Below, piece after piece: positions 7,669 through 61,911 of a DNA stretch of 64,000 nt. A program made the translations under genes and the position numbers. Each line of letters starts with the position of its first letter. Within the stretch, counting starts at the first letter, position 1. The notes beneath the pieces were generated by a model that saw only the letters and a list, made by a program, of their open reading frames with translations, did not search any database and was not told the DNA's origin. The stretch is from a virus (Duplodnaviria > Caudoviricetes): IMG/VR virus record IMGVR_UViG_3300021399_000003, positions 64,001 to 128,000 of that record; one strand, 5' to 3'.

Positions 7669-7914
7669 TTAATGAACCCTATCATAAAAATACTTTAAAA
7701 GATAGGCTTCATCTGCTAAGTCCATACAAAAAATTTCATATTCATCGCCATGAGTATCAGCAAGCTTTCCAAGTGCAATAAACTCAGATAACTTACTTTT
7801 AAGATTAAATTCTTCAGTTCCATCTACACTACGAAGAATTACATCTCCTCTACATTGTCTAATTGCAGCGCGAAACGCTTCTAGATCACTAATATTCTTT
7901 AAAAACCTACTCAT
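7669..7914 (-). CDS. small hypothetical protein (HPr-like fold possible)
   Basis: CRGDVILRS..FNLKS pattern. Confidence 0.55.
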   Translation of the reverse strand: MSRFLKNISDLEAFRAAIRQCRGDVILRSVDGTEEFNLKSKLSEFIALGKLADTHGDEYEIFCMDLADEAYLLKYFYDRVH

Positions 7915-8213
7915 TACTCAATCACATCCCTTATTATTCTTTCATAGTGTATTGGATCAATATTTTTATAATCTGACCACTTTACTAAGTTATCAACAGA
8001 TTCTGCGTCACTTAAATCATATTCTTGACGCCAACCTGACCAATCGTAAAACTTATCAAAGTTACGGAAAAGGAAATGTCCCTCTACAAGGTCATACCAA
8101 ATTTCTCCCTTAAATCGCATCTTAAGAATGCGCGCAAAGTAGTAACAGTTTCCTTCTAACCAATCACAGTTTGATGGAAAACGACGGTTAATAAATTCCT
8201 CTATCTTATCCAT
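7914..8213 (-). CDS. hypothetical protein
   Basis: ORF with RBS; GNCYYFA..H..YD motif. Confidence 0.6.
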   Translation of the reverse strand: MDKIEEFINRRFPSNCDWLEGNCYYFARILKMRFKGEIWYDLVEGHFLFRNFDKFYDWSGWRQEYDLSDAESVDNLVKWSDYKNIDPIHYERIIRDVIE

Positions 8214-8238
8214 TCCGAATACCTCCTAGAATAATTAC

Positions 8239-8309
8239 TAGACGCCTTATAAATAAAATAAAAATGGAGCCAAAATATAATTGCTGTTGTTGTGGCACAA
8301 TGGCGTCTA
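8239..8309 (-). ncRNA. Y-RNA-like family member (ACAGCAA motif)
   Basis: terminal stem TAGACGCC/GGCGTCTA enclosing ACAGCAA. Confidence 0.45.
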
Positions 8310-9626: not shown

Positions 9627-9722
9627 TGGCGACAGGCTTCGGACTTGAACCGAAACATCAGTATATACTAATTACTCTCTGATTAGCAATCAGATGCCTT
9701 ACCAAATTAGGCTTAGCCTGTC
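9627..9722 (-). tRNA. tRNA-Ser(GCT)
   Basis: TCTGA-TTGCTAA-TCAGA; long variable arm; GACAGGC/GCCTGTC-GCCA. Confidence 0.88.
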
Positions 9723-10387
9723 TTATCATTATCTTGCCATTTCCAAATATAGCCATAAGCGATATTCCTTAGTCCTCGTGCGCATTGACTAATATGGTTA
9801 CTACCTGATTCTTTTCCTAAACTTTTTGCAGCAGAATAACAAGAATAAAATTTATTGATTAAATTACCATTTAAATCATATTGACATAAAATATTATAGT
9901 TATTTTTTATTTGTTTTTCATTAAATAAATCATTTTTTAATTTTATTTCTTTGTTCAAAATAGTAGATAAAACATTCTCTGCGGTATAATTTTCAATGAA
10001 AAAATTAACATTTTGATTTTTTTGTATAGGTGTAAAACTTAAAGTGATTTTATTAGAATAATTTTCACATTCTTGAACAGGAATTAAATAACATTGATTA
10101 TTAAAGTAAGTTGCAAATAAATCAATTTCATTACTAGAATAATTATGTTTAATGTTTTCTTTACCTGATGTTGTTAGACTATATAAATTAAATTCAATTC
10201 CAGTATCTTTTTCTTTACAAGTTTTTACTTGTATTTTTAACAATTTCAACTTAATATCTAATATCATATCATATCTGCAATCTTCTCCAATTGGAATGCT
10301 TATATTATATCCTAAAGAAGTAAGATATGCTTGACATAATAATTCTGTTGTGATTCCTTTAATTTTAGTATCTACCATTTTTATCAC
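9713..10387 (-). CDS. PD-(D/E)XK homing endonuclease with NUMOD1-like C-terminus
   Basis: KG..TE, RYDMILD..KIQVKT, EIDLFA, QYDLNG...AYGYIWK. Confidence 0.82.
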   Translation of the reverse strand: MIKMVDTKIKGITTELLCQAYLTSLGYNISIPIGEDCRYDMILDIKLKLLKIQVKTCKEKDTGIEFNLYSLTTSGKENIKHNYSSNEIDLFATYFNNQCYLIPVQECENYSNKITLSFTPIQKNQNVNFFIENYTAENVLSTILNKEIKLKNDLFNEKQIKNNYNILCQYDLNGNLINKFYSCYSAAKSLGKESGSNHISQCARGLRNIAYGYIWKWQDNDKTG

Positions 10388-10462: not shown

Positions 10463-10606
10463 GTGCGCCATCACGGATTTGAACCGTGGACTCCTTGATT
10501 AATGGTGGAGACCGCCAGAATTGCACTGGCACTATCAGTTTGTTCCTTTACTTCAATGCGCTTGCAGTCCCCAAGTCAAGTGCTCTACCAACTGAGCTAA
10601 TGGCGC
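10461..10606 (-). tRNA. tRNA-Lys(TTT) split in the anticodon by a 70-nt tRNA-like insert (10503-10572)
   Basis: exon1 GCGCCATTAGCTCAGTTGGTAGAGCACTTGACTT + exon2 TTAATCAAGGAGTCCACGGTTCAAATCCGTGATGGCGCA gives canonical cloverleaf. Confidence 0.88.
10503..10572 (-). ncRNA. nested tRNA-like element, Ala/tmRNA-TLD-like
   Basis: GGGGACT/GGTCTCC acceptor with G3:U70, A73, CCA; T arm GCCAG-TGCAATT-CTGGC. Confidence 0.75.
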
Positions 10607-10607
10607 A

Positions 10608-10682
10608 TGGCGTCCTTACTAGGAGTCGAACCTAGATTTTGAACTTAGAAGGTTCAAGTCCTATCCTTTAGACGATAAGGAC
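10608..10682 (-). tRNA. tRNA-Arg(TCT)
   Basis: TGAAC-CTTCTAA-GTTCA; GTTCGACTC; GCCA end. Confidence 0.9.
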
Positions 10683-11008
10683 ATTCTTTTATAATATTTT
10701 TCTTCATCTTTTCCGCAATTATCACACCAAGGAAGAATCCAACCAGTAGAATATTTTGTAGCAGGTTGGCCGCAAACACAACACGTTCGTGCGCTTAATT
10801 CTTCGTATTTATTTTCAATTGCATCTATTTCACGCCAATAAGTCATATCACATCTTGCAATTACATCAAGACTTCCCCATTTCTCTTTTAGGTCACAAAT
10901 GTAATAAGTTGGGTCAATAGCTTCACACTCTTCTATCATTTTTCGCGCAAGTTCAATCCAACCAGAAGGAATTGAAGAAAGCCATTTATAATTATTTACT
11001 TGCTCCAT
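10661..11008 (-). CDS. hypothetical protein (KEKWGSL motif, C-terminal CxxC pairs)
   Basis: ORF; GW..L, KEKWG, CCVCG, CDNC. Confidence 0.65.
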   Translation of the reverse strand: MEQVNNYKWLSSIPSGWIELARKMIEECEAIDPTYYICDLKEKWGSLDVIARCDMTYWREIDAIENKYEELSARTCCVCGQPATKYSTGWILPWCDNCGKDEEKYYKRMSLSSKG

Positions 11009-13812: not shown

Positions 13813-14396
13813 ATACCCTATTTAATAAAACCGTTGCGGCCTTCGCCGTACTTGTATTATCCTTCTAACATATTCAACCACGTTGGAGATGAAGGCTGAG
13901 CCACGGGTAGCAATTCCGGACTTCTTCACCCCGTCTTTCGACCAACAACGGAGAGACTGTTTACTCTCAAATTTCACCTAAACCATTCAGCACAATAATA
14001 TCTAATCAAATCTATTAGATTCATTGTCGTTTTGGGCTACTTTTTCTGTGAACCTCGCTTATATCCTATTTCTAGGTTTCAACGACATCAAGCGTCTTGT
14101 TGGCATTTCCAAGGTTTGCGGTGGTAGCCAGCCACATCTAAAACGCCTAACTTGGATTCAGGTCACGCTTTTAACGCTCACCTTCTATTGCGACGCCGCG
14201 AGGAGCCAAGTTTTTGTTAGCGGATAACCAAGCACCTATCCTTAACATTAGGAGTTTCTCCATATCGCTAGTCATTACTGATTTCGCGGCCTTGGCTTGA
14301 AAGTATCCCATCAAGTTTGGGGCTGTTATTCAGATAGTCCAAGCAGAGTGGTTAGCTCTTCTTCACTTGGTTCAACCATTTTATTAAATAGGGTAT
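13813..14396 (-). ncRNA. large structured ncRNA, ROOL-sized candidate
   Basis: 584-nt ORF-free region closed by perfect 18-bp terminal helix; dedicated promoter at 14424-14452. Confidence 0.5.
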
Positions 14397-16084: not shown

Positions 16085-16218
16085 TGGTGCCCCAGACGGG
16101 ACTTGAACCCGTACACCCTCACGGATAGCGGATTTTGGTCGTGGGAAGGAGTGCTGCTCTCCAACAAGCCACTGGGCCCACGTAAGTCCGCTGCGTCTGC
16201 CAATTCCGCCACCAGGGC
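16085..16218 (-). tRNA. tRNA-Leu(TAA) split in the anticodon by a 47-nt minihelix-like insert (16136-16182)
   Basis: GCGGA-CTTA|AAA-TCCGC restored on removal; Leu D loop GGAATTGGCAGAC, long variable arm, ACCA. Confidence 0.88.
16136..16182 (-). ncRNA. nested tRNA minihelix-like element
   Basis: CGTGGG/CCCACG-ACCA; T arm GGAG-AGCAGCA-CTCC. Confidence 0.7.
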
Positions 16219-16938
16219 ATAAAAACCTGATGTAACCCTCACGCAGCTAGATGGTTACTTTGAATAGTACTTTAAGGTATACTGCTAATATATAGGCTAT
16301 CAGGCGTAGCCTTAACAAGTAAATGTGTGGTTGTTCGATATTTGCTCCTTTTATTTCTGAACCACACTAAGAAGCCCTTAAATCGACACTCCTCGAACAG
16401 GGTGCGTCCGCGACCATCACGCCGCTATGCATTGTTAACAATGGGCGATTTTTATCGTTGTTCGCCGCAACTACCTAGGTAATAAGTCTCCTAGTGGTGC
16501 GCTTCTTTGAGAGGCGTAAGGAGAACATTTGCGGTGGCGCCTCACAATTAACCGCAATTTCCCTTATAAAGCCCAGTGGGTGGACTCTGGCGCCGAAGTT
16601 TTATTTTCTAGTTTGTGGTGAACTTCAAACCCTTTATAAACTCCATTAATTGCTTCATACTAGAAAAGTAATTAATTTCATCGTTTCATAATCATCTTGT
16701 GATTATGCCGAATACGCTTTCACGTATTCTAAAACTCCTTGTACGCTTGGTACATGAGATAGCGGTGACGCCCTTCAAAAGTACTGGCCGCAATTTTTCG
16801 TTCAGCGTCTAATCCTGCCACTCATCAAGCTTTTCAGCTTGCTCACGGCGAGTCCAAGAAGAAGAAAATACAGTACGAGAAGTCTTACGCACAACTATCA
16901 TTCCTTTCCTTGTTTCTATAAATATTATATCACAATTT

Positions 16939-22042: not shown

Positions 22043-22693
22043 TCATACAAACTCTTTCATATCTTCCCATTTAATTTTTACAATTATACGTTCGCCGCGA
22101 CGATTGCGCAATTCAATAGCAGGTCTACATACTACTCCTTCCATTTCACGTTCCTCTTCCGCGATTACAGAATTAGGATGGGTCTTTACATATTCTTCTG
22201 CTGCGTATAAGGAACCAGTGCCTACAATAGGCACAGCCTTAATTCCGAACATTTTTGCAGTTGTTTCTACCCATTCGCGCTCCTGATAGTTATCGCCAAT
22301 AAGCACATCAAAGAGAATAAAATCTACACCGTTGGGAATATACTTTCCACCGCCCTTCTGAATCTTGCGGCCATAACCTTCACCGAAAAGAATAACTTCC
22401 TTTTCGCCAAAAACCTGTTCAAAAATCTGAGCATTAACCTCACCGCCGAACAACTCATTCAAACGAGTAACAAGTTCTGCGGGAATAGCAGCATTATCGG
22501 TGCGACCACCAAAGGTAACAGTATGGCCATCCCAACATACGCGAATGTTAGTGCCATCAACCTTCTCAGTCCAAATCCAGCAATTATCGCTGAGATATTC
22601 TATAGTTGGGTCACGAAATACTCCCGGAAGTAGCTTTTTAGTTCCAGTTGTGTCTCTTTGATAGAGAGTATCAATCTTTTCATACTTTCTCAT
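22043..22693 (-). CDS. ATP-dependent RNA ligase (Rnl2-like)
   Basis: TEKVDGTN motif I, FGEGYG, FDV, EGVV, KIK. Confidence 0.82.
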   Translation of the reverse strand: MRKYEKIDTLYQRDTTGTKKLLPGVFRDPTIEYLSDNCWIWTEKVDGTNIRVCWDGHTVTFGGRTDNAAIPAELVTRLNELFGGEVNAQIFEQVFGEKEVILFGEGYGRKIQKGGGKYIPNGVDFILFDVLIGDNYQEREWVETTAKMFGIKAVPIVGTGSLYAAEEYVKTHPNSVIAEEEREMEGVVCRPAIELRNRRGERIIVKIKWEDMKEFV

Positions 22694-22755
22694 GTGTTTT
22701 GTTCCTTTCTACTTACTATAATAATTATAGCAAAAATTATATAGAAAGTCAAATA

Positions 22756-23109
22756 TTAAATTTCCTTATATCCATAATGAGTAAGAAGTTGCCGCATATT
22801 TGCGACACCAACAGGATTCATGCTATGGATATGAAAACCTACAAGTGGAATTTGATTTTCTACAATATATTTACAAATATCATAACCTGATTTAGCAAGA
22901 GTGTCATCTATTTCATGCCCTTCACCCAAATCATGGTCAAGGTCAATAATTATATTATAAAACTCCTCATTATAATAGTTTAGAAAGAAAATTGCTTCTT
23001 CTACGCTACGGCAAGTAATAGGAATCCATTCCATATGGGTATAGTTACCCAACGTCTTGAAGAAAGTATCATCTTCACGAATATCATCTACATAGATATA
23101 AATATTCAT
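22756..23109 (-). CDS. cyclic-phosphate-processing receiver-domain protein
   Basis: YVDDIR, DLDHDLG, SGYD, IHSMNPVG. Confidence 0.75.
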   Translation of the reverse strand: MNIYIYVDDIREDDTFFKTLGNYTHMEWIPITCRSVEEAIFFLNYYNEEFYNIIIDLDHDLGEGHEIDDTLAKSGYDICKYIVENQIPLVGFHIHSMNPVGVANMRQLLTHYGYKEI

Positions 23110-23179
23110 ATCTCTCACCCTTTCTATAATTATTATACTATAATTTCTATATTTAGTCAAGAAAAAAGAAGATGAACTT

Positions 23180-23965
23180 TCATTCATCTTCTTCTTTCAC
23201 TAAATATTCATCACTAAATAACATTTCAAGAGTAATATTATCGCGTTCCCAGTATGGAATGCGAACGAGAGGAATGTTGTGGGAAAGGGCGTATTGATTT
23301 TTTTCTTTATCGCGTTGCTGCTGCTCTTTTAATCCATTTCGTGCCTGCCATTTGCCCCATGTTTCTTGATAATGTTGAATACCATCAAATTCAATTAAAC
23401 GGATTAATTCATTATTTTTATTATATATTCCAAAGTCATACCAATAAGGATGTTTATTTTTTCCTAGCAAATTATCAAATCGTACTTCAGGTTTAAAATT
23501 GATATTATTTTCTTTTAAAATTTTTGTTATATTAACTGCTCCAACTGATTTTTCTCTTTTTATACACCCACAAGAAATCGTATGTAAACTACGTAAATTA
23601 TTAGCATCTACATCGCATTCATTTCCGCAAGCACATTTACAATGCCATATGGCATTTTGACTTATGTTACTTCCAGTTTTATAAAGAGCAGTTAAATATC
23701 CAAATGTTTGACCAGTAATATCTTTAGTTAATTTATCACCTATAATTTTACTTTTCATACATCCACAACTGGTATCTCTTTGTAAATTACGAAAATTCTT
23801 TACACAATAATTTCCGCAATGTTTACATAAACAATTCCAAAAGGTATGAGTACCTTTGTTGGGAGCTCGTCCTATTATTTTAAAATTCTCATCTTCATAT
23901 CCAGTTCTATCTTTAAGTGTATTACCTGCTACACCATTAAACCACTGTAATTCTTCATATAACAT
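23180..23965 (-). CDS. putative homing endonuclease (Cys-rich repeats + Vsr/DUF559-like nuclease)
   Basis: CxC.CG/SCGC repeats, YDF, IEFDGIQH, RD..K, RIPYW. Confidence 0.7.
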   Translation of the reverse strand: MLYEELQWFNGVAGNTLKDRTGYEDENFKIIGRAPNKGTHTFWNCLCKHCGNYCVKNFRNLQRDTSCGCMKSKIIGDKLTKDITGQTFGYLTALYKTGSNISQNAIWHCKCACGNECDVDANNLRSLHTISCGCIKREKSVGAVNITKILKENNINFKPEVRFDNLLGKNKHPYWYDFGIYNKNNELIRLIEFDGIQHYQETWGKWQARNGLKEQQQRDKEKNQYALSHNIPLVRIPYWERDNITLEMLFSDEYLVKEEDE

Positions 23966-23989
23966 AACATCACCTAAAAGAGCCCGTTC

Positions 23990-25522
23990 TTAATGAATGG
24001 GCTCATATCTCTTACTGTTCAGCTTTTCATACATCATGTCCTCAGCCTTCTTGCCAGACATAATCATTTCAAAGATTACAGGAGAGCAACCAGAAACAGT
24101 AGTTACGTCAGGGCCAACGTCCAAAACTGTATTATTACGTGCGTTTACATTCCAAAAAACAAGAGAAGGCATCTTGTATCCAGAATGGCTCCACTTATCA
24201 CGCATCTTATCCATAAAGGTTTGTACCTGATTGGCACTGTAGCCATTATTTCTATTCCAAGAGGAATATCCCTGTGCGGAATCAATTTCTTGGTCACTGA
24301 TAATGACAATGGTTTCAGGCATATCTGCCTGACGCAGATGATTCCGAACAGCAGTATTCAGCACAAGGTCAAATACAGACTGTAGATTGGTGTTTTCGCA
24401 AAGATTCGTCTTTACGATACGGTCAACCTTGTCGCAGAAGTCCACGCCGCGAGTCTCAACAAACTTCGCCGTGCGGCTGAAGCTGATGTAAGAGTTTGCG
24501 AAAGGTCCCTTATTACGCTCTGCGGCATAAAGAGCAAGAGAGACTGCGACATCAATAGGAGCAACGCTACCAGCACCACTCGTCATACTTCCGCTTGTAT
24601 CGGCGACAACAAGGGCATTCAGGGACATGCCATGGAAGTAATCAGTTAGATTCTCCCAATACTTGTTAATCATCAGGCGGTCGGTATTGTCAAGGGCAAT
24701 ATTACTGCCACGGCCATACCAGCTATAGTCCGAACCCATAAGCTTAATGGCCTTAGCAACCACATCATAAGGATATAGTGCGGCTGCATTAACCTTGGTA
24801 GAGGTATCCTTGGCAAACGCTTCATACTTCGCCTTGATTAGATCACGACGAGCAAAAGCGTTCTTATAAATCAGGCCAGCACGAGAAGGAATCTTGTCAA
24901 ATTCAATCTCATTCCAGCGATTTGTGGACATAAGGCGCTCCAGTACACGAATACGCTCACGAAGGTTAGAAAGCAGTACACGATACTGACGAGAGGTTAG
25001 ACCCATAGTATGGGCAGTTAGACGTCCATAACGCTTAGTCTTGGCAGAAGAAGCGTTCTCGGAAGCTGCCCACTTACCAGCAAGGGAAATAGCACCCTTG
25101 GTCTTGTAGTCAAGGGCAAGCTGCTTACCAAGAGCATATAGAGCCTCATGCTCACAGGAAGTCCCTACGAGAGCATATAGGTCGTCCCAGCGGCCATACT
25201 CAGCAATCTGGTCAAGATTGCGAAGTACAGCATCACGATCTACATCAGCAAGCCAATGTAGGCATACACGGAAAAATCTTCTTTCCCCTTGGCCGCCGCG
25301 CACGTCCCGCTCGTAGAATAGGCACTTTAGGGCATATACAGGGTTCTCCTGATAGGCTTCCTTAAAAAGCAGAATACAATCACTTTCGGTGCGCTGACGA
25401 TAAGCTGCGCCGAAAGAGAAGAGGTCATATAGCTTAGAGCTAGTAGTGGTTCGCGCAACAGCATGATTTTCGGTATACTTATAAGTATTTTGAGAAGCCA
25501 TAGCATTGTAAAGACGATTCAT
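23990..25522 (-). CDS. DUF2828 / Ro60(TROVE)-like protein with vWA domain
   Basis: RDVRGGQGER, YGRWDDL, MIDAS DTSGSM, ISDQE, FWNV. Confidence 0.8.
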   Translation of the reverse strand: MNRLYNAMASQNTYKYTENHAVARTTTSSKLYDLFSFGAAYRQRTESDCILLFKEAYQENPVYALKCLFYERDVRGGQGERRFFRVCLHWLADVDRDAVLRNLDQIAEYGRWDDLYALVGTSCEHEALYALGKQLALDYKTKGAISLAGKWAASENASSAKTKRYGRLTAHTMGLTSRQYRVLLSNLRERIRVLERLMSTNRWNEIEFDKIPSRAGLIYKNAFARRDLIKAKYEAFAKDTSTKVNAAALYPYDVVAKAIKLMGSDYSWYGRGSNIALDNTDRLMINKYWENLTDYFHGMSLNALVVADTSGSMTSGAGSVAPIDVAVSLALYAAERNKGPFANSYISFSRTAKFVETRGVDFCDKVDRIVKTNLCENTNLQSVFDLVLNTAVRNHLRQADMPETIVIISDQEIDSAQGYSSWNRNNGYSANQVQTFMDKMRDKWSHSGYKMPSLVFWNVNARNNTVLDVGPDVTTVSGCSPVIFEMIMSGKKAEDMMYEKLNSKRYEPIH

Positions 25523-27250: not shown

Positions 27251-27404
27251 TAGTCGGGAACCTGGGACTCGAACCCAGGACACACGGCTTATTGGTCATG
27301 AAGGATAGATTTGAACTATCATTATCTTCTGCTAGACAGAAGTAGTTTTCCAATTTAACTTACTTCATGAAGGCCGCTGCTCTGACCTACTGAGCTAGTT
27401 CCCG
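27251..27404 (-). tRNA. tRNA-Ile(TAT) split in the anticodon by a 77-nt full tRNA (27293-27369)
   Basis: GCGGC-CTT|ATAA-GCCGT restored on removal; canonical D and T arms. Confidence 0.87.
27293..27369 (-). tRNA. nested cloverleaf with CTA (amber) anticodon
   Basis: CATGAAG/CTTCATG-ACCA; D arm AGTT/AACT; CTTCT-GTCTAGC-AGAAG; GATAG-TTCAAAT-CTATC. Confidence 0.72.
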
Positions 27405-61026: not shown

Positions 61027-61911
61027 CTAATGCGCGGCTTCATCATATTGATGAAGTTCCACTACCTCCTTCCAAAGTTTTTCACCCATACGAGAACGCC
61101 AAGTATCCTGACACTTCTGGTCAGTATAGGGTATCATATGGTATGCTACAAGTTGTGCTACGTGAGCATTATACCCCATAGTAAGAGCCATATAACAAGA
61201 TACATTTGCATGATTAGGATAATGAAGTTCCCTGTAATCATCTTTTCCCCATCTGGTAGCAGTCCAAACCTTGCCATAATCATGAATATAGGCTGCGCGC
61301 ACAATATTGGCATTGGATAGCCCCAACAGCGCTATGTCTCCGCAAGCATGGCAATGCTCCTGTAGTGTAAGAGAATGATGGCTATTGCCCTGTTCTCCAT
61401 ATTCTTTTACAAGATGAGCATAAGAACGACGATAATAATCCCTATCATATTCTGGCGCGTAATCATACCGGATAAGAACCTTATTCCATCCTTCGCCTTC
61501 GCACGGCATCTCAAATTGCCGCAGCATGCGGTCAATAACATACGAAGGGACTACTCGTTCACGAGCACCATTGCGCTCATGGCATACATCAATAGGAGTA
61601 GCCATGACTACACAATAATAATGAATATCAGGGAACATCTTCTTCAAAGACTTCACGAGATTCATACGACGACGAGAAGAGAGATTAGTAGCATCATAGA
61701 AAACAGTATGATTAGTTTCTAACGCAGCGCTAGTGCGCTGGAACATAATGTTAAAAATGCGAGCGTTGTCTTCTTGGACCGAAGCATCTCCATATAATTC
61801 TTCTCTAATAGAGTCACTAGATACAATTACATCATAGGGCTTTGCCTTTTTGCGTGCCCAATAACTTTTCCCACTGCCAGGAAGACCACAAAGCATGTAA
61901 AAAATAGTCAT
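61027..61911 (-). CDS. polynucleotide kinase (AAA_33) + HD domain
   Basis: GLPGSGKS, SSDSIR, DATNL, RN..RER, HDYGK. Confidence 0.85.
   Translation of the reverse strand: MTIFYMLCGLPGSGKSYWARKKAKPYDVIVSSDSIREELYGDASVQEDNARIFNIMFQRTSAALETNHTVFYDATNLSSRRRMNLVKSLKKMFPDIHYYCVVMATPIDVCHERNGARERVVPSYVIDRMLRQFEMPCEGEGWNKVLIRYDYAPEYDRDYYRRSYAHLVKEYGEQGNSHHSLTLQEHCHACGDIALLGLSNANIVRAAYIHDYGKVWTATRWGKDDYRELHYPNHANVSCYMALTMGYNAHVAQLVAYHMIPYTDQKCQDTWRSRMGEKLWKEVVELHQYDEAAH

Follow-up and report, generated by a model that had tools for sequence, protein, structure and literature searches.

A tRNA-shaped, CCA-ended insert with alanine-type acceptor determinants interrupts a phage tRNA-Lys gene and is predicted to be an excisable intron

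The introns of bacterial and phage transfer RNA (tRNA) genes are, in the textbook account, self-splicing group I RNAs. The insert described here is of another kind. It is a 70-nucleotide (nt) tRNA-shaped element in the anticodon loop of a tRNA-Lys(UUU) gene on the minus strand of a 64,000-nt stretch of DNA from a tailed phage (Caudoviricetes; positions 64,001 to 128,000 of IMG/VR record IMGVR_UViG_3300021399_000003). This whole stretch is called the window, and coordinates refer to it unless another record is named. The insert bears an alanine mark and belongs to a class of phage tRNA introns that has hardly been described; its excision is predicted from the sequence. An earlier note on the same DNA had interpreted it as an alanine-accepting tRNA-like domain of the transfer-messenger RNA (tmRNA) type.

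The closest described system, reported by Devoto et al. (2019, Nat Microbiol; PMC6784885), consists of the 'enigmatic' introns in the tRNAs of the Lak megaphages, of which at least one 'may itself encode a tRNA'. Like the present insert, the Lak introns lie in the anticodon loops of phage tRNAs, have no Rfam match, are present in some genomes and absent from others, and show, close to the 3' end, a hairpin resembling a T arm as well as a terminal stem (Table S6 sequences, PMC6784885). They differ in their length of 79-114 nt, in an extra leader hairpin that precedes the tRNA-like part and in ending with CA, not NCCA (PMC6784885), whereas the 70-nt insert spans exactly acceptor nucleotide 1 to the A of CCA. 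A mechanism, an alanine identity and mobility between tRNA genes were not described for the Lak introns (PMC6784885), and this was the only report found in the literature on nested tRNAs, tRNA-like introns and RNase P-dependent tRNA splicing in phages.

A second related system is the repair of tRNA-Lys in phage T4, where Pnkp and Rnl1 reseal a tRNA-Lys that was nicked in the anticodon loop (PMC3400036). In both cases the break is in the anticodon loop and the halves are, or here would be, held by the cloverleaf, and the phage of the window encodes homologues of the ligase and the kinase. However, in T4 a host nuclease, PrrC, attacks a continuous tRNA, while here the gene itself is discontinuous and two cuts would be needed to set the intervening RNA free. 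The group I intron of tRNA-Leu(UAA) in cyanobacteria, plastids and some phages occupies the same type of site, within the anticodon after U34, but the insert is five times too small for such an intron, lacks a catalytic core and a terminal G, and ends with CCA. Finally, the tRNA-Ala minihelix and the tmRNA tRNA-like domain share with the insert the pairs G1-C72, G2-C71, G3.U70 and G4-C69, A73 and CCA on a stack of 12 base pairs (bp). The insert differs from tRNA-Ala in having no anticodon arm, and from tmRNA in having no match to the model, no tag region and no D-loop analogue; unlike both, it would arise, if at all, by excision from another tRNA.

The interrupted gene and its parts were as follows.

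10464..10606, minus strand: interrupted tRNA-Lys(UUU), 143 nt; Rfam tRNA model 58 bits, with a 73-nt insertion in the anticodon loop
10573..10606, minus strand: 5' exon, comprising the acceptor 5' strand, D arm, anticodon stem 5' strand, C32, U33 and U34
10503..10572, minus strand: tRNA-shaped insert, 70 nt, from G1 at 10572 to the last A of ACCA at 10503, by direct reading
10464..10502, minus strand: 3' exon, comprising U35, U36, A37, A38, anticodon stem 3' strand, variable loop, T arm, acceptor 3' strand and A73

The insert is flanked by U34 at 10573 and U35 at 10502. Since it starts with G and ends with A and both flanks are U, the junction is unambiguous, given a mature 7-nt tRNA-Lys loop. 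Deletion of exactly 70 nt left a 73-nt tRNA with a 7-nt anticodon loop and the anticodon UUU, and this spliced sequence had about 90% identity with the uninterrupted phage tRNA-Lys(UUU) genes L342 and L345, whose acceptor stem is the same. The 5' exon matched the 5' half of these uninterrupted genes exactly, D loop excepted. The outer cloverleaf was 100% paired across three alleles, with nine pairs changed on both sides. One compensatory change, A-U to G-C in the T stem, distinguished the outer tRNA of the window from that of a second record, L091, which encodes the CCA of the outer tRNA-Lys, unlike the window gene. The interrupted gene is the sole tRNA-Lys of a 169-kb, AT-rich genome. The earlier note had placed the insert between U34 and U35, and each element that it named was found on the minus strand where it had been put.

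Within the insert, the following parts were recognized.

10566..10572, minus strand: 5' strand of the acceptor-like stem (G1-G4, A5, C6, U7); invariant in three alleles, base-pair probability 1.0
10507..10513, minus strand: 3' strand of the acceptor-like stem; U70 at 10509 opposite G3 at 10570
10503..10506, minus strand: discriminator A73 (10506) and encoded CCA (10505-10503); the final A abuts U35 of the outer tRNA
10514..10530, minus strand: T-arm-like hairpin with a 5-bp stem and a 7-nt loop; adjoins the 3' acceptor strand
10532..10549, minus strand: variable middle, insert positions 24-41; all six sites that differ among three alleles

The terminal stem has 7 bp, G1-C72, G2-C71, G3.U70, G4-C69, A5-U68, C6-G67 and U7.G66. 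The T-like loop has U54, C56, A57 and A58, but a non-consensus G at position 55. The G3:U70 pair, A73, the ACCA end and the T arm could thus be read directly, as the earlier note had done. Its remark that the insert has no proper D stem or anticodon arm also held: ARAGORN and the Rfam tRNA model found no tRNA in the insert alone, ARAGORN found no tmRNA in it, and in the 35-nt middle there was no D arm and, on inspection by eye, neither a 5-7-5 arm nor an alanine anticodon in a loop context. Among 2,000,000 shuffles of the insert, one reproduced its architecture of a 7-bp terminal stem and an NCCA end with a 5-bp/7-nt hairpin next to the stem, and a chance origin of the architecture is excluded. 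In the predicted fold of the whole precursor, the outer cloverleaf and the insert formed separate domains. Scans for exact patterns (the 3' end of the insert, its T arm, and GGGG...CCACCA inserts) returned almost only chance matches, and the T-arm pattern in bacterial genomes retrieved only ordinary tRNAs that share the T arm.

The genome carries three inserts of this kind, in tRNA-Lys, tRNA-Leu and tRNA-Ile, the latter two being:

16088..16218, minus strand: tRNA-Leu(UAA) with a 47-nt minihelix; insert 16136-16182, ends with ACCA
27254..27404, minus strand: tRNA-Ile(UAU) with a complete 77-nt tRNA(CUA); insert 27293-27369, ends with ACCA

A variant of the tRNA-Leu case (L089/L096) showed a compensatory change in the insert stem. 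Further members were sought in three surveys, 1) a metagenome scan for any 48-78-nt insert at position 34/35 of tRNA-Lys, in which CCA was not required, 2) a viral scan of the tRNA-Lys pattern in which only CCA before U35 was required, and 3) ARAGORN in intron mode, again with no requirement for CCA, on relatives retrieved via two neighbouring proteins. The two scans with the tRNA-Lys pattern demanded CCA or ACCA as the final insert nucleotides, and the 5' end and the acceptor stem of the insert were left free in all surveys. Most matches of the metagenome scan were rejected as artefacts in which the loop motif recurred by chance after a normal tRNA-Lys. There were 17 clear inserts in about 16 families, 44-105 nt long, in tRNA-Lys, tRNA-Leu, tRNA-Ile and one other tRNA, at positions 34/35, 35/36 or 36/37. 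In all 17, the terminal stem was fully paired (7/7), the 3' end was NCCA and position -1 was U. At one end of the range were complete tRNAs (such as Phe GAA in L053 and Asn GUU in L376), at the other bare acceptor/T minihelices of 44-47 nt, with decayed tRNAs in between, a series that looks like a reduction from a full tRNA to its processing signals. The tRNA-Lys insert shares the features of the class, namely the anticodon-loop site, a 7-nt loop on removal, 7/7 pairs, ACCA, and empty and filled alleles.

The occupancy of the sites varied between phages. For one outer tRNA-Lys, which lies in synteny between tRNA-Gln and tRNA-Ser, four states were found: L083 and L090 have it empty, L085, L087 and L088 with a 105-nt insert, L086 with a 44-nt minihelix at 36/37, and L384, a rumen scaffold, with the 70-nt insert. 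The same 70-nt insert is found in a different, unrelated tRNA-Lys, that of the window and L091 (identical to L012 and L074). Because it is present in two unrelated tRNA-Lys genes, the insert is mobile. The 44-nt minihelix likewise had a homologue in another tRNA (L096), with a compensatory change in the stem. The L384 copy was one new allele reached through a neighbouring 115-aa protein; the alleles of the 70-nt insert in L091/L012 and L384 showed 94% identity. Among the three alleles there were six variable sites, all at insert positions 24-41, while positions 1-23 and 42-70 were invariant; with variation confined to the middle, the ends are the conserved part. No further copy of the 70-nt insert was found in its own genome or in five related records.

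These observations suggest a processing scheme that we favour with moderate confidence, in which a mobile, tRNA-shaped, CCA-ended insert would be excised by RNase P and a second cut, the exons would be ligated to a working tRNA-Lys, and the released 70-nt RNA would probably be alanylated. The optimal substrate of bacterial RNase P has a 12-bp stem, a T loop, RCCA and U(-1)/G(+1) (PMC10731613). The insert fits this with a 12-bp acceptor/T stack that carries a T-like loop, U(-1)/G(+1) at its 5' boundary and ACCA as its 3' end, and the features common to all the inserts are likewise those of such a substrate. Host RNase P would cut between 10573 and 10572, leaving a 3'-OH on the 5' exon, and a second endonucleolytic cut past the CCA (10503/10502) would free the 3' exon. 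The exons, held by the outer cloverleaf, could then be sealed by a phage ATP-dependent RNA ligase, after a kinase had healed the ends if needed, and the product would be a working tRNA-Lys. The nicked intermediate would correspond exactly to what Pnkp and Rnl1 mend in the tRNA-Lys of T4-infected cells (PMC3400036). The RNA so released would bear the acceptor identity set of alanyl-tRNA synthetase (AlaRS). The phage encodes an Rnl1-family ligase, a 380-aa homologue of Rnl1 being at G000:131105-132247, as well as the following proteins.

22043..22693, minus strand: small ATP-dependent RNA ligase (Rnl2-type nucleotidyltransferase domain), candidate sealing enzyme; PF09414 3e-16, phrog_548 'RNA ligase'; inside the tRNA array
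22756..23187, minus strand: cREC (cyclic-phosphate processing receiver) domain protein; PF20274 2e-16; adjoins the ligase
23990..25522, minus strand: Ro60/TROVE-like RNA-binding protein (DUF2828 + DUF7788); phrog_850, 2e-118
61027..61911, minus strand: polynucleotide kinase (AAA_33) with a weak HD-domain match, candidate end-healing enzyme

Homologues of the small ligase lie beside the tRNA arrays of two relatives (G001 and G002), and at least one such ligase was present in 6/6 insert-bearing phage records that were at least 96% complete. A gene for RtcB was not found. The RNA-repair cluster at 22043-25522 (minus strand), in the middle of the tRNA array, also holds a 261-aa protein that matches the non-catalytic part of HNH homing endonucleases.

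Several observations weigh against this scheme, 1) we know of no bacterial enzyme established to cut exactly after an encoded CCA in such a context, and no RNase Z-like gene was found in these phages, 2) the ligases are common in large phages that have no such inserts (G003, G007) and are hence not discriminating, 3) an encoded CCA is common in the free tRNA genes of the clade (77/99), so that the CCA ends by themselves are weak evidence, 4) the case for selection on the outer tRNA after the insertion consists of the one compensatory change in the T stem described above, most of the covariation in the outer stems lying between tRNA-Lys genes that are older than the insertions, and 5) RNAfold favoured a rod over the fold with the T arm by 5.4 kcal/mol (-23.3 vs -17.9 kcal/mol). 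In the rod, insert positions 45-50, which involve the 5' strand of the T arm, are paired with positions 14-19. Both the T-arm and the rod helices were invariant among the three alleles and hence without covariation.

The end of the insert has the complete set of acceptor-branch determinants recognized by AlaRS. It is reported that acceptor minihelices are charged by AlaRS (Francklyn and Schimmel, 1989). The bacterial determinants in the acceptor branch are A73, G2-C71, G3.U70 and G4-C69 (Table 1, PMC9976931), and charging of minihelices by AlaRS is described in the same source (PMC9976931). The insert carries all of these together with G1-C72 and an encoded CCA, which upholds the alanine identity proposed in the earlier note, while a tRNA-Ala cloverleaf with a D arm and an NGC anticodon arm was not found in the insert with ARAGORN or the Rfam tRNA model. 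The alanine mark is enriched in the tRNA-Lys inserts: the full set, G1-C72, G2-C71, G3.U70, G4-C69 and A73, recurred in 3/11 families of tRNA-Lys inserts, the 70-nt insert, L372 (75 nt) and L381/L383 (47 nt), and in 0/5 of the families hosted by other tRNAs. The interiors of the three alanine-type families had no detectable similarity; their pairs 1-4 were identical and pairs 5-7 covaried. If the inserts had been drawn randomly from 20 identities, the binomial probability of at least 3 of 11 being of alanine type would be about 0.015; all three families are among the six that came from the stem-free viral scan, in which CCA was required.

The acceptor stem of a phage tRNA-Ala (L371) differs from that of the insert at one pair. 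The insert stem looks as if it was borrowed from a tRNA-Ala-type RNA, to judge from its sequence, with the D and anticodon parts either decayed or never there. Similarity of the insert interior to the phage tRNA-Ala, to the other alanine-type inserts and to a free-standing 61-nt alanine-type RNA described below did not exceed that of shuffled controls. Conservation of the G3:U70 pair, which the earlier note had named as a check, was positive within limits: the pair was kept in 3/3 alleles and in the two tRNA-Lys families with unrelated interiors (L372; L381/L383), but it was not kept in most members of the class, including the sister inserts of the same genome. As G3.U70 is missing from most members, the alanine mark does not explain the existence of the insert. 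Either alanine-type RNAs were preferred as donors or the alanine mark was selected. Alanylation of the excised 70-nt RNA is plausible by the identity rules and is possibly selected. A tentative extension, to which we give a low probability, is that the alanine mark was selected because a subset of tRNA-Lys introns is released as trans-acting alanyl-minihelices, which would couple the splicing of tRNA-Lys to the supply of a charged, non-decoding RNA. If so, roles conceivable for the alanyl-minihelix would be titration of EF-Tu, AlaRS or SmpB and the donation of alanine to a transferase; alternatively, aminoacylation might serve to protect the RNA. The recurrence of the full alanine set on otherwise unrelated inserts is new here and raises the idea of a charged excised intron.

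The alternative that survives best, although we consider it unlikely, is that the outer tRNA is a scaffold that stabilizes and presents the inner RNA, the exons never being rejoined and the host tRNA-Lys being used. It is reported that tRNA scaffolds stabilize RNAs placed in the anticodon loop (Ponchon and Dardel); the complete amber-anticodon tRNA in the tRNA-Ile gene of the window would need only to be released, and the enzyme required by splicing for a precise cut after CCA is not one that we know of. On the other hand, removal of the insert restored a perfect 7-nt loop and the anticodon UUU in every case, inserts of the smallest size (44-47 nt) consist of bare processing signals and carry no evident cargo, and the interrupted gene is the only tRNA-Lys that the phage has in an AT-rich genome.

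It is improbable that the insertion is dead, that is, that a mobile element broke the gene and left the tRNA-Lys a recent pseudogene from which nothing is processed. The insertions are young, given that some close relatives have an empty allele and others a filled one, and tRNA-Lys can be supplied by the host. Yet the insert was kept in three lineages and two tRNA-Lys genes with its ends invariant and only the middle drifting, the T stem of the outer tRNA acquired a compensatory change between the window and L091, and the same kind of interruption affects three tRNAs of one genome.

The evidence speaks against a tmRNA domain. The earlier note had proposed that the excised piece is a mini tRNA-like domain of the tmRNA type, alanylated and acting as an SmpB/EF-Tu decoy or a rescue mimic, and this now appears slightly less probable still than a dead insertion. 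The full alanine acceptor set and the ACCA end are present, and tmRNA-related RNAs do occur in the wider phage group (a full tmRNA in G006 and the 61-nt RNA in G000). However, the tmRNA model RF00023 did not match the insert alone at E up to 10, nor was the insert reported when the whole record was searched with RF00023, while ordinary tRNAs scored 17-27 bits. The check with tmRNA covariance models was negative save for one weak local match to a permuted model (11.2 bits, E 0.64, gathering threshold 47) that covered only the T arm and the 3' strand. The 70 nt contain neither a tag region nor a resume codon, the ARAGORN tmRNA search was empty, the T loop has the non-consensus G55 and no D-loop analogue was recognized. 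An SmpB gene was not found in the phage, and the decoy proposal was not supported. The ends of the insert, of which the note had named the GGGG start as a tmRNA trait, are no less typical of ordinary tRNA-Ala, with GGGG at the start and CUCC-ACCA at the end (e.g. L371); G3.U70, A73 and CCA are common to every tRNA-Ala and thus do not discriminate, and most inserts of the class have no G3.U70.

Two further RNAs lie outside the window. A 156-kb phage (G006, the record behind L345) that has an uninterrupted tRNA-Lys like that of the window carries a full-length tmRNA at G006:673-987 (RF00023, 97 bits). In G000, a free-standing 61-nt tRNA-like RNA lies behind a strong sigma-70-type promoter at 139151-139211, minus strand (L349:1652-1712). 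Its ends carry G1-C72, G2-C71, G3.U70, G4-C69, A73 and CCA; the T arm is canonical, there is a small hairpin resembling a D arm, and an anticodon arm is missing. This RNA matched RF00023 end to end with 21.5 bits, which is below the gathering threshold and outscores the tRNA model. A syntenic 119-nt version in the relative G001 (L350:1558-1676) kept pairs 1-4 and had compensatory changes in pairs 5-7 and the T stem. ARAGORN miscalled the region of the 61-nt RNA as a 'tRNA-His with a 399-nt intron'.

It is very improbable that the RNA splices or cleaves itself, be it as a group I-like intron or as a small ribozyme similar to the hepatitis delta virus (HDV)-like theta ribozymes. The group I intron of tRNA-Leu(UAA) does classically lie at 34/35, two relatives carry introns there whose core motifs resemble group I, and an association of theta ribozymes with phage tRNAs is on record (PMC10879173). 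However, 70 nt is far below the size of a group I intron, the last nucleotide is A and not G, no ribozyme family or intron in Rfam matched at E up to 10, and theta ribozymes follow tRNAs and do not lie inside them. The introns of these relatives, 259 nt in L092 (5281-5625) and 349 nt in L097 (4652-5077), occupy the anticodon site of tRNA-Leu(UAA) where the window phage has its 47-nt minihelix; their group I-like motifs and terminal G were recognized by eye and were not reported by Rfam at the gathering threshold. A protein-spliced intron of the archaeal or eukaryal type was rejected: there was no bulge-helix-bulge 3-4-3 motif, the stem of the insert beginning right at the junction in the predicted precursor fold, with loops of 2 and 7 nt, and the site is 34/35, not the usual 37/38.

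If the proposed processing is correct, an intron that is a substrate of RNase P and needs a ligase would constitute a third route of tRNA splicing, dependent on protein or ribonucleoprotein and not known in bacteria, and the RNA ligases and kinases of phages would gain a role beyond repair. The mobile inserts, polymorphic between near-identical phages, offer a tractable system, as one and the same tRNA-Lys is either empty or filled with three different inserts. There are also consequences for annotation. In intron mode ARAGORN misassigned all three interrupted genes of the window, calling Lys as 'Thr(tgt) i(36,70)', Leu as Val and Ile as Arg; the Thr(tgt) call arose because the position of the intron was shifted. 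Without intron mode the outer tRNAs of all three genes were missed. Automated tRNA repertoires of phages, and the code switches deduced from such calls, will be wrong for interrupted genes.

The phage genome that holds the window is complete, with 169,459 bp, direct terminal repeats and 35.7% G+C. No relative of the region of the tRNA-Lys gene, or of a structural gene, was found in the phage GenBank collection. The interrupted gene belongs to a minus-strand tRNA array at 8-28 kb of the window in which homing endonucleases, a ROOL RNA and a drum RNA are interspersed. The features closest to the gene and the two structured RNAs were:

9713-10387: PD-(D/E)XK homing endonuclease
10608..10682, minus strand: tRNA-Arg(UCU) with encoded CCA, 1 nt (10607) before G1 of tRNA-Lys
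13818-14394, minus strand: ROOL RNA, 298 bits, inside the tRNA array
16591-16686, minus strand: drum RNA, 60 bits, inside the tRNA array

The 1-nt spacing between tRNA-Arg and tRNA-Lys implies a dimeric precursor that RNase P must cut. The open reading frame (ORF) of the neighbouring 115-aa protein, at 10661-11008, ends within tRNA-Arg (overlap 10661-10682). The position of the ROOL RNA in the array was conserved in the relatives L012, L092, L096 and L097. The relative G002 has an uninterrupted tRNA-Lys (L399:1501-1576, corresponding to G002:53063-53138) outside its tRNA array, directly behind a repeated early promoter. In L096, a tRNA-Pro-like gene (7732-8284) has an interruption of about 476 nt after the anticodon arm, which holds an ORF resembling the PD-(D/E)XK homing endonuclease of the window.

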